From an uncultured Chlamydiales bacterium (GTDB lineage: Bacteria; Chlamydiota; Chlamydiia; Chlamydiales; JAAKFR01): a DNA stretch of 64,000 nt. Shown here piece after piece: positions 19,784 to 20,185 of this stretch. The position numbers and the translations under genes are program-made. The stretch spans positions 2,155,757 through 2,219,756 of the forward strand of contig OY969414.1 in assembly GCA_963699155.1 (NCBI GenBank). The letters are read 5' to 3'. Numbering within the stretch: position 1 is the stretch's first letter; the number at the start of each line of letters is the position of its first letter. The notes under the pieces were generated by a model. The model worked only from the letters and a program-made list of their open reading frames with translations. It did no database searches and was not told the origin of the DNA.

Positions 19784-20185
19784 ATGTGGAAAAATCGAAT
19801 TACTAAAAGAGTAGCTTCAGATGAAAATCTGAAAAAACAATTACTCCAAAATCCCAAAAAGATTTTGGCAGAAGAGTTTCAACTCTCTCTCCCCAATGAT
19901 GTCGAGGTTGTCATTCTTCAAGACACTCCTACAAAGATCCACTTAACACTTCCTCACCCCAAATGGGAATCATCAGGCTCTGATGAACTTGCTGATGAAC
20001 ACCTGAAAATGGTATCAGGCGGAGCCCAATCGATCCCGAGAACCTGGAGACTGGGTCGTGATGTGCACCCTGACGGACGATGGGATTGGACCATCTCGAA
20101 AGATGGCGGTAAGACCTGGGATTGGCCTAATCCAAAGGAAAGAGAATTGTATGACCTTTCCATGGGCGGGCGAGTAGAACTTTGA
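19784..20185 (+). CDS. NHLP-leader peptide (RiPP/bacteriocin-type precursor)
   Basis: DENLKKQLLQNPKKIL...LPNDVEVVILQDTPTKIHLTLP nitrile-hydratase-like leader; ELADEHLKMVSGG cleavage motif; 53-aa core. Confidence 0.88.
   Translation: MWKNRITKRVASDENLKKQLLQNPKKILAEEFQLSLPNDVEVVILQDTPTKIHLTLPHPKWESSGSDELADEHLKMVSGGAQSIPRTWRLGRDVHPDGRWDWTISKDGGKTWDWPNPKERELYDLSMGGRVEL

Follow-up and report, generated by a model that had tools for sequence, protein, structure and literature searches.

A 64,000-nucleotide stretch of contig OY969414.1 from an uncultured Chlamydiales bacterium (assembly GCA_963699155.1, forward-strand positions 2,155,757 to 2,219,756; this whole stretch is the window of the following text, and coordinates count from its first letter) holds a small gene whose product, P0001, is a genuine and well-formed but orphan precursor of the NHLP (nitrile hydratase leader peptide) family, with an exporter encoded in the same window. 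That the gene is real and its product a member of this family is almost certain. The reading that we favour, with roughly even confidence, is that P0001 is cleaved behind its leader and that the remaining core peptide, probably unmodified, is exported by type I secretion. Other proteins from our sequence searches are likewise given P-numbers, and L001 denotes a related Chlamydiales locus.

Leader, predicted cleavage site and exporter

The open reading frame (ORF) of the precursor runs from 19784 to 20185 on the forward strand (ATG at 19784, stop codon at 20183-20185) and encodes 133 amino acids, none of them cysteine; sequence and translation are identical to the letter to those of an initial annotation made from this DNA alone. 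In a six-frame reading the frame opens no earlier than 19775, and the ATG at 19784 is therefore the first possible start. The gene and its product show the following features.

19773..19778, forward strand: AGGGGG, a Shine-Dalgarno-like site read from the sequence, 5 nt before the ATG
19784..20023, forward strand: NHLP leader, residues 1-80 (TIGR03793), with the Gly-Gly pair G79-G80 at 20018-20023
20024..20182, forward strand: core, residues 81-133 (53 residues, no Cys, five Trp; monoisotopic mass when unmodified 6262.11 Da)
20042..20077, forward strand: core segment TWRLGRDVHPDG, residues 87-98, common to P0061 (BLASTP and Smith-Waterman)
20081-20089 and 20117-20125, forward strand: two W-D-W motifs that flank the Asp-box, each with a Lys four residues later
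20096..20119, forward strand: Asp-box SKDGGKTW, residues 105-112, a match to the consensus
20144..20170, forward strand: ELYDLSMGG, residues 121-129, a double-glycine look-alike

Residues 4-80 match the NCBIfam hidden Markov model (HMM) TIGR03793 with 56.4 bits against a curated cutoff of 50.9 (E 1.9e-15), which confirms the earlier call of an NHLP-leader precursor. A Pfam scan of the precursor gave nothing at E <= 0.01. Searching 1.84 billion cluster representatives with phmmer retrieved 946 proteins at E <= 1e-3, of which 34 reached 1e-10 or less and none 1e-30 or less. In an alignment of the query with 44 single-domain matches hand-picked from the 150 listed (n = 45), P24 is invariant and L20, P37, L56, P57, L69, L74, G79 and G80 are conserved to at least 90%. 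Both glycines of the proposed 80-residue leader occupy near-invariant columns and are therefore the Gly-Gly site of the NHLP family. P0001 on its own matches the solved proteusin precursor 8tb1 with the Gly-Gly aligned (phmmer, E 2.1e-7), and the NHLP family profile matches the same structure at E 1.4e-21. AlphaFold2 run on the NHLP alignment gave a predicted local distance difference test (pLDDT) score of 91-97 for residues 1-50 and a helix at 71-78. The best Foldseek hits of the full-length model were 8tb1 (E 1.6, TMt 0.41) and 9cjx (root mean square deviation 1.7 A over 46 columns), none of them significant.

P0001 thus resembles the NHLP or proteusin precursors (TIGR03793; 8tb1, 9cjx) in its leader of about 80 residues that shares homology with nitrile hydratase's alpha subunit, in lacking any Cys and hence the metal site of that enzyme (the criterion given by Haft 2010), in the position of its Gly-Gly (80, where Haft 2010 gives an average of 83 for the family) and in its association with a TIGR03794/03796/03797 export cassette. 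Many of the best NHLP matches are proteins of 150-250 residues that align to the query in two stretches, and P0003 and P0006 have two tandem leader-like domains ahead of a single Gly-Gly and core.

The leader ends in ...ELADEHLKMVSGG at G80. Double-glycine leaders are read by the protease LahT150 through hydrophobic residues at -4, -7 and -12 (PMC6363468). We predict cleavage after G80 because V77, L74 and L69 of P0001 sit exactly at these positions, as do I, L and L in its homologue P0002 described below; by sequence logic this site is well supported.

Four co-directional NHLP export genes lie on the same strand as the precursor, 22.6 kb downstream of it, at 42757..50739.

42757..44379, forward strand: TolC-like outer-membrane factor (TIGR01844 E 5.4e-14, Pfam OEP), syntenic in L001
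44351..45655, forward strand: HlyD-type adaptor of the NHLP system (TIGR03794, 199 bits against a cutoff of 156.2)
45639..47789, forward strand: C39 peptidase/permease/ATPase (ABC1), predicted to cleave the leader and export the core (TIGR03796, 910.8 against 853.3)
47737..50739, forward strand: second, peptidase-less ABC protein (ABC2) with a 311-residue N-terminal extension (TIGR03797 on residues 312-998)

The matches of the export genes are full length, so the genes look intact. For ABC2 the TIGR03797 score of 685.6 bits is slightly under the cutoff of 709.4, yet this is by far its best match. The N-terminal 150 residues of ABC1 match LahT150 (6mpz) at E 6.7e-41, and Q12, C18, H91 and D107 of ABC1 align with Q21, C27, H101 and D117 of LahT, whose catalytic roles are described in PMC6363468; by sequence the C39 domain holds a complete catalytic set. 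The exporter put forward in the initial annotation is thus real and has a C39 subunit that matches the NHLP type. We think it likely that this C39-ABC protein cleaves P0001 after G80 and that the product is exported through the four-gene type I system. The distance between precursor and exporter has precedents in the family, since NHLPs can lie far from export genes and are reported from species without known modifying enzymes (Haft 2010). Compared with the LahT/PCAT exporters (LahT150, 6mpz; PCAT1, 4ry2), the system shares the Gln/Cys/His/Asp set of the C39 domain and, in P0001, a predicted substrate with Val/Leu/Leu at -4/-7/-12, and differs in being a four-gene set of the Gram-negative type, with HlyD, an outer-membrane factor and a second ABC protein with a 311-residue extension. 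The extension (ABC2 residues 1-311, window 47737-48669) had no Pfam match at E <= 10 and no PDB sequence match at E <= 1. It also occurs in L001 (12060-13020), where the TIGR03797 match starts at residue 322.

A scan of species-representative genomes with the C39-ABC protein found one locus, L001, in a metagenome-assembled genome of an uncultured Chlamydiales bacterium, with 74% identity over all 716 residues. Window and L001 have a common gene order of redoxin, outer-membrane factor, HlyD, ABC1 and ABC2 followed by five more genes, for a glyoxalase-like protein, AzlC, AzlD, a solute symporter and a coiled-coil protein. Judged from this one locus, the host is probably a related chlamydia-like bacterium of the environmental kind. 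The leader HMM detected no NHLP ORF in the 22 kb of L001, and the exporter is conserved there whereas a cargo of the P0001 type is not. When the HMM built from the leader alignment was run over 2,009 six-frame fragments of window and L001, the precursor was the only NHLP-type ORF. Likewise tblastn gave no paralogue of the precursor in the window below E 0.9, and none of 53 small intergenic window ORFs matched a precursor family.

In window and L001 alike, the redoxin (Redoxin/AhpC-TSA) gene immediately precedes the export genes (window 42140-42727, L001 5845-6432; 72% identity by tblastx). The pairing suggests that the two are linked in a conserved way, for which a cargo without Cys would give no reason. 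L001 has an extra ORF of 179 residues and no family at 6501-7040, between the redoxin and outer-membrane factor genes. In the window two transposase genes, one with an IS481-type integrase core (51476-52597, forward strand) and one of the DDE_Tnp_1 type (52967-53947, reverse strand), lie between ABC2 and the glyoxalase-like gene, where L001 has a gap of about 30 bases (15098 to 15128).

The core peptide and its Asp-box

The core contains a motif of the Asp-box type, for which the consensus is X-X-(S/t)-X-(D/n)-X-G-X-(T/s)-(W/f/y)-X (PMC2716378). The stretch TISKDGGKTWD agrees with this consensus at all five conserved positions, and the SxDGGxTW Asp-box proposed in the initial annotation is genuine, with a perfect fit. 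A strict S-x-D-x-G-x-T-W arose in 38 of 200,000 shuffles of the core, and among 150 whole relatives the pattern was found in two, P0001 and P0002; it is the distinctive feature of the P0001 core. The Pfam family BNR (PF02012) scored 14.5 bits with P0001 (E 0.036) and 14.8 bits with P0002, below the cutoff of 27, because a single copy of 12 residues cannot attain 27 bits. A protein of 3,171 residues, P0049, matches by way of a stretch, repeated 11 times, that has 48% identity to core residues 22-44 or 22-46 (23-25 residues). The Asp-box copies of P0049 are located within Big_13 immunoglobulin-like (Ig-like) repeats, so that by sequence the context nearest to the P0001 motif is that of an Ig-like sandwich rather than of a propeller blade. 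P0001 shares with the Asp-box (BNR) hairpins of Ig-like repeats and beta-propellers the perfect consensus and the identity to P0049; it differs from them in having a single copy in a peptide of 53 residues with no Ig-like or propeller domain around it.

Only one phmmer match among the 1.84 billion representatives aligned through the core. This protein, P0002, has 116 residues, is 47% identical to P0001 and has the same MWK start. Its Asp-box, SSDGGKTW, occupies core positions 25-32, the same offset as SKDGGKTW in P0001. The rest of its core is dissimilar, with neither a W-x-W motif nor the C-terminal tail of P0001. The shared start and the retained Asp-box at 47% identity argue for selection. 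The Asp-box form of the core is rare, with two sequences in 1.84 billion representatives. A further NHLP of 109 residues from an unrelated source, P0061, is like P0001 a singleton; P0001 itself stands alone in a collection of 5.8 billion protein clusters. The core of P0061 shares the pattern TW...RDVHP.G with core residues 7-18. In Smith-Waterman comparisons with 120 cores, P0002 and P0061 as a pair scored 46 and 43 (46 for the P0061 segment), and 4 of 300 shuffled queries reached 46 or 43 against any of the 120. Three parts thus seem to be pieced together in the core: a loop or hairpin segment and an Asp-box, both conserved, and a unique tail. Word-indexed searches with P0001 alone or with the P0001/P0002 alignment found those two proteins only, and a search with the core end of P0061 found only P0061 itself. 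Scanning 185,579 species-representative genomes with the P0001/P0002 alignment gave 164 pattern matches and no relative; the scan used two N-terminal patterns only, so that divergent relatives could be missed. A look-up of the core in the ESM Atlas returned no usable match.

The core was described initially as Cys-free with five Trp and two DG..WDW repeats, and both are borne out by the translation (DGRWDW at residues 97-102, DGGKTWDW at 107-114). It has nine Lys and Arg against nine Asp and Glu, an isoelectric point of 6.82 and a grand average of hydropathy of -1.19; the highest hydropathy over 19 residues is 0.95, and no window of that length reaches 1.6. For comparison with the family we took 150 proteins (the query and the phmmer matches listed, with the 3,171-residue P0049 excluded) and defined cores by the last occurrence of a hydrophobic residue at -4 and -7 followed by G-[GA], leaving at least eight residues. 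This rule gave 121 cores, among which some sites may be misplaced, and the other 29 proteins were dropped. Cys is absent from 56 of the 121 sampled cores, so a Cys-free core is ordinary and the statement that NHLP cores are usually rich in Cys, Ser, Thr and Gly was too strong. The median core length is 27 residues (the average given by Haft 2010 is 26) against 53 in P0001, and 14 of the 121 have 50 or more. Two cores hold five Trp (P0001 and P0019), and two hold W-x-W (P0001 and P0040). The P0001 core falls inside the known hypervariability of the NHLP family; its Asp-box, found in 2 of the 150 relatives, sets it apart from other NHLP/proteusin precursors.

When the core was shuffled 200,000 times, 7,867 of the products (about 4%) had at least two W-x-W motifs, and the double motif alone is therefore a weak feature. 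A duplication within the gene was rejected as the source of DG..WDW since the DNA of the two repeats, compared by eye and not by a formal test, shares just the nine bases of W-D-W. The string ELxDLxxGG noted near the C-terminus is present (residues 121-129), but the spacing of a true leader end is not: Ser, Tyr and Lys stand at -4, -7 and -12 where the G80 site has Val, Leu and Leu, and the tail is missing in P0002. It is probably not a cleavage site, and we rejected it as a second one.

Neighbouring genes and the rest of the window

The precursor is flanked by three further genes on the same strand.

17975..18910, forward strand: ABC ATPase (Pfam ABC_tran)
18907..19692, forward strand: ABC-2 permease (Pfam ABC2_membrane), overlapping the ATPase gene by 4 nt
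20263..20571, forward strand: ORF of 102 residues with two hydrophobic segments (17-40 and 45-69), 78 nt downstream of the precursor

Pfam agrees with the initial annotation in assigning an ABC ATPase and an ABC-2 permease as the upstream neighbours. The closest NCBIfam model to this pair is the DrrA subfamily, with 202.9 bits, below its cutoff. The permease gene stops 92 nt before the precursor, and in this gap no terminator-like or promoter-like site was flagged. A promoter-like site was found at 20182-20211, just upstream of the 102-residue ORF. This ORF has no family in Pfam or NCBIfam and is a singleton in the protein collection; its product could serve in immunity or be an unrelated membrane protein of the hairpin type. 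A self-protection role is possible for the ABC-2 pump. Two adjacent hydrophobic segments and a common VGGGGL are also seen in an ORF of 87 residues at 15646-15909 (forward strand). Atlas features of the 102-residue ORF gave weak leads to the hairpin-membrane type III effectors SteD (0.83) and SepZ (0.76), below 0.9. Inclusion-membrane proteins of chlamydiae typically have a hydrophobic domain with two lobes.

In Pfam and/or NCBIfam scans the 56 large and 53 small intergenic ORFs of the window matched no known tailoring family, whether radical SAM, YcaO, LanM/B/C, halogenase, prenyltransferase, ATP-grasp or P450, and no precursor family other than that of P0001. The earlier statement that the window holds no tailoring enzyme therefore stands by these family scans. 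P0001 differs here from the NHLP/proteusin precursors with LanM, YcaO or radical SAM partners, of which its window has none, and of leader-guided enzymes encoded with the core, the mark of a ribosomally synthesized peptide with post-translational modifications (RiPP) or proteusin in the strict sense, no known family was found in these 64 kb. Thirteen window ORFs have no family at all, three of them of at least 400 residues (69-1319, 1323-2747 and 30573-31778). Rfam and tRNA scans of the window gave nothing at gathering thresholds.

Between a tag gene and the ABC ATPase gene lies an ORF-poor stretch of 1.4 kb (16485-17908) made up of nested inverted repeats. Its repeat pairs are 16516-16564/17860-17908 (90%), 16826-16934/17739-17847 (87%) and 16764-16817/17689-17742 (85%), and near-perfect hairpins stand at 16597-16693, 16952-17071 and 17173-17238. 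The hairpins at 16.6-17.2 kb gave only sub-threshold, microRNA-like Rfam matches. It may be what is left of a mobile element, or the scar of a recombination, beside the precursor block.

Elsewhere the window contains two tandem cytochrome o-type quinol oxidase operons (4958-8649 and 9950-14657), each with subunits II, I, III and IV; a gene of the UbiA family (heme O synthase-like) comes after the second. A class D beta-lactamase-like gene (41315-42088, reverse strand) with a Pfam Transpeptidase domain and 202.2 bits against NF012161 (cutoff 250) stands between the kdp operon and the gene for redoxin. A 1-kb gap without a long ORF at 29500-30572 includes a fragment of 55 residues that corresponds to the first 47 of the 116 positions of GxxExxY (TIGR04256, E 7.7e-11) and is probably a gene remnant. 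The adjoining ORF of 401 residues (30573-31778) has a sub-threshold F-box-like N-terminus (E 0.11), and a coiled-coil protein of 533 residues (60793-62394) has SMC- and CENP-F-like matches. Such eukaryote-like features are common in intracellular bacteria.

Proposed export of the core, modified or unmodified

The initial annotation had offered two fates for the core, an unmodified beta-hairpin mini-protein or the substrate of a distant enzyme. This frame is right, and our evidence leans to the unmodified peptide. We lean this way because no tailoring family occurs among the 56 large ORFs of the window, because the cores of P0001 and P0002 keep at an identical offset the self-stabilising Asp-box and not W-x-W, because the core is long (53 against a median of 27 residues), hydrophilic and of mixed charge, and because Haft 2010 reports NHLPs in species without known modifying enzymes or far from export genes.

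In the favoured reading of cleavage and unmodified export, L69, L74 and V77 on the helix ahead of the Gly-Gly would face the C39 domain's hydrophobic groove, the protease would cut after G80 and the core of 53 residues would then be pumped across both membranes. Less certain are the steps that follow. The core may be released without further tailoring, a step to which we give about an even chance, and it may act as a small soluble Trp-rich peptide of beta structure, in which a conserved Asp-box hairpin (residues 103-113) would be preceded by the TW...RDVHP.G loop or hairpin common to another NHLP core. After the manner of designed tryptophan zippers, the W-x-W motifs at either side of the Asp-box turn could clamp the hairpin. 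The ABC-2 pump and the ORF with two membrane segments may protect the producer, in which case the peptide would be a bacteriocin-like antagonist released by a chlamydia-like bacterium; an antagonistic role with self-protection encoded by the neighbours is a tentative suggestion that we hold to be rather doubtful. P0001 would resemble the unmodified double-glycine bacteriocins and microcins (class II; TIGR01847) in its predicted cleavage and export by a C39-ABC protein with no other tailoring, and in the small membrane-protein gene and ABC pump beside the structural gene. It differs from them in a leader of about 80 residues that is predicted to be folded, against about 24. The mature peptides of class II-type bacteriocins are cationic, amphipathic or hydrophobic, and the P0001 core is neutral and hydrophilic.

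Several observations weigh against cleavage and unmodified export of such a peptide. In the full-length AlphaFold2 model the core has a pLDDT of 54-61 and no strands; modelled alone it reaches 59.9, with strands at 8-14, 20-26 and 40-45 and no hairpin at the Asp-box. Of the proposed beta-hairpin mini-protein the motif is thus present and a confident core fold is not, so that the mini-protein is still read from the motif. The exporter is encoded 22.6 kb away. In the genome of L001 the two-pattern scan found no P0001-like gene though the exporter is conserved, and the pump may therefore serve other cargo. The core family is defined by two sequences, which leaves its conservation statistics thin, and the immunity role of the neighbours follows from adjacency alone. 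What NHLP leaders are chiefly known for is the docking of tailoring enzymes (PMC12537861), and our negative result on these covers the 64-kb window of a genome with about 2.3 Mb more. Finally, a neutral and hydrophilic core is unlike the typical membrane-active class II bacteriocins.

In a further variant, an obligate intracellular chlamydia-like bacterium would use the NHLP type I system to secrete an unmodified, autonomously folding Asp-box mini-protein, with a Trp-clamped hairpin beside the conserved RDVHP.G loop, into its vacuole or host, where it would act on a target of the host or a competitor and not as a classical membrane-active bacteriocin. Such a peptide would be the smallest stand-alone Asp-box fold in nature, with an NHLP leader that acts purely as the secretion tag of a folded cargo. 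We consider this variant unlikely.

The most serious alternative, a real possibility that we nevertheless find less than probable, is that the core is tailored by an enzyme encoded elsewhere in the genome and that the exported product is a modified RiPP of the proteusin or daropeptide-like kind. Candidates would be a DarE-like radical SAM enzyme that sets ether or C-C cross-links at both W-x-W motifs, a Trp halogenase, a prenyltransferase or an epimerase. LanM enzymes and a peptide brominase are known to be guided by leaders of the NHLP type (PMC12537861), a precursor may be encoded at some distance from its modification genes (Haft 2010), and W1-X2-W3 is a mining motif for daropeptides with DarE-like enzymes, of which those called type III have several ether cross-links (PMC10849128). 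The P0001 core has this motif twice, as W-D-W with a Lys at +4 of each, and neither AlphaFold2 model gives it a confident fold of its own. But no such enzyme family is encoded in the 64 kb around precursor and exporter, the leader is of the NHLP type, and at least two W-x-W motifs are expected by chance in about 4% of shuffles of so Trp-rich a core. The sole homologue, P0002, has no W-x-W and retains the Asp-box, which leaves the darobactin-type lead of the initial annotation weak. For an Asp-box the side chains of Ser, Asp, Thr and Trp have to be intact (PMC2716378). Darobactin-type precursors are short and are not known to carry NHLP leaders.

It is quite unlikely that P0001 is the relic of an orphan gene, or an NHLP-domain protein that stays in the cytoplasm and is neither processed nor exported, with an Asp-box likeness that is incidental or stems from a captured fragment of an Ig-like repeat. 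Its singleton status, its distance from the exporter and the adjoining repeat-ridden and ORF-poor 1.4 kb would suit such a relic, and the likeness of core residues 22-46 to part of P0049's Big_13 repeats is of a kind that a captured fragment could show. Yet the ORF is intact and preceded by a Shine-Dalgarno-like site, every near-invariant leader residue is kept including the Gly-Gly and the hydrophobic residues at -4, -7 and -12, the shared MWK start and Asp-box of the 47% identical homologue argue for selection, and a matching intact exporter is encoded in the window. Cleavage after both G80 and G129, which would yield a peptide of 49 residues (5764.81 Da monoisotopic) and a four-residue tail, is very improbable: ELYDLSMGG is superficially like the end of a double-glycine leader, but its spacing is unlike that of the real G80 site, Ser, Tyr and Lys replace the needed hydrophobic residues and the tail is not conserved in P0002.

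If the core is exported unmodified, NHLP leaders can serve as plain cleavable secretion tags for small folded cargos, and a leader mainly associated with heavily modified natural products would gain a wider use. The peptide would be a very small natural test case for a hairpin that is elsewhere buried in large propellers or Ig-like domains. A search of the literature, made largely outside subscription journals, turned up no earlier Asp-box in the core of a RiPP or a bacteriocin. If the core is instead modified at W-x-W, NHLP leaders would be linked to darobactin-type chemistry. RiPP-like clusters have been predicted by antiSMASH in several chlamydial families (PMC9666466). The precursor and exporter of the window form a concrete pair from a Chlamydiales genome.

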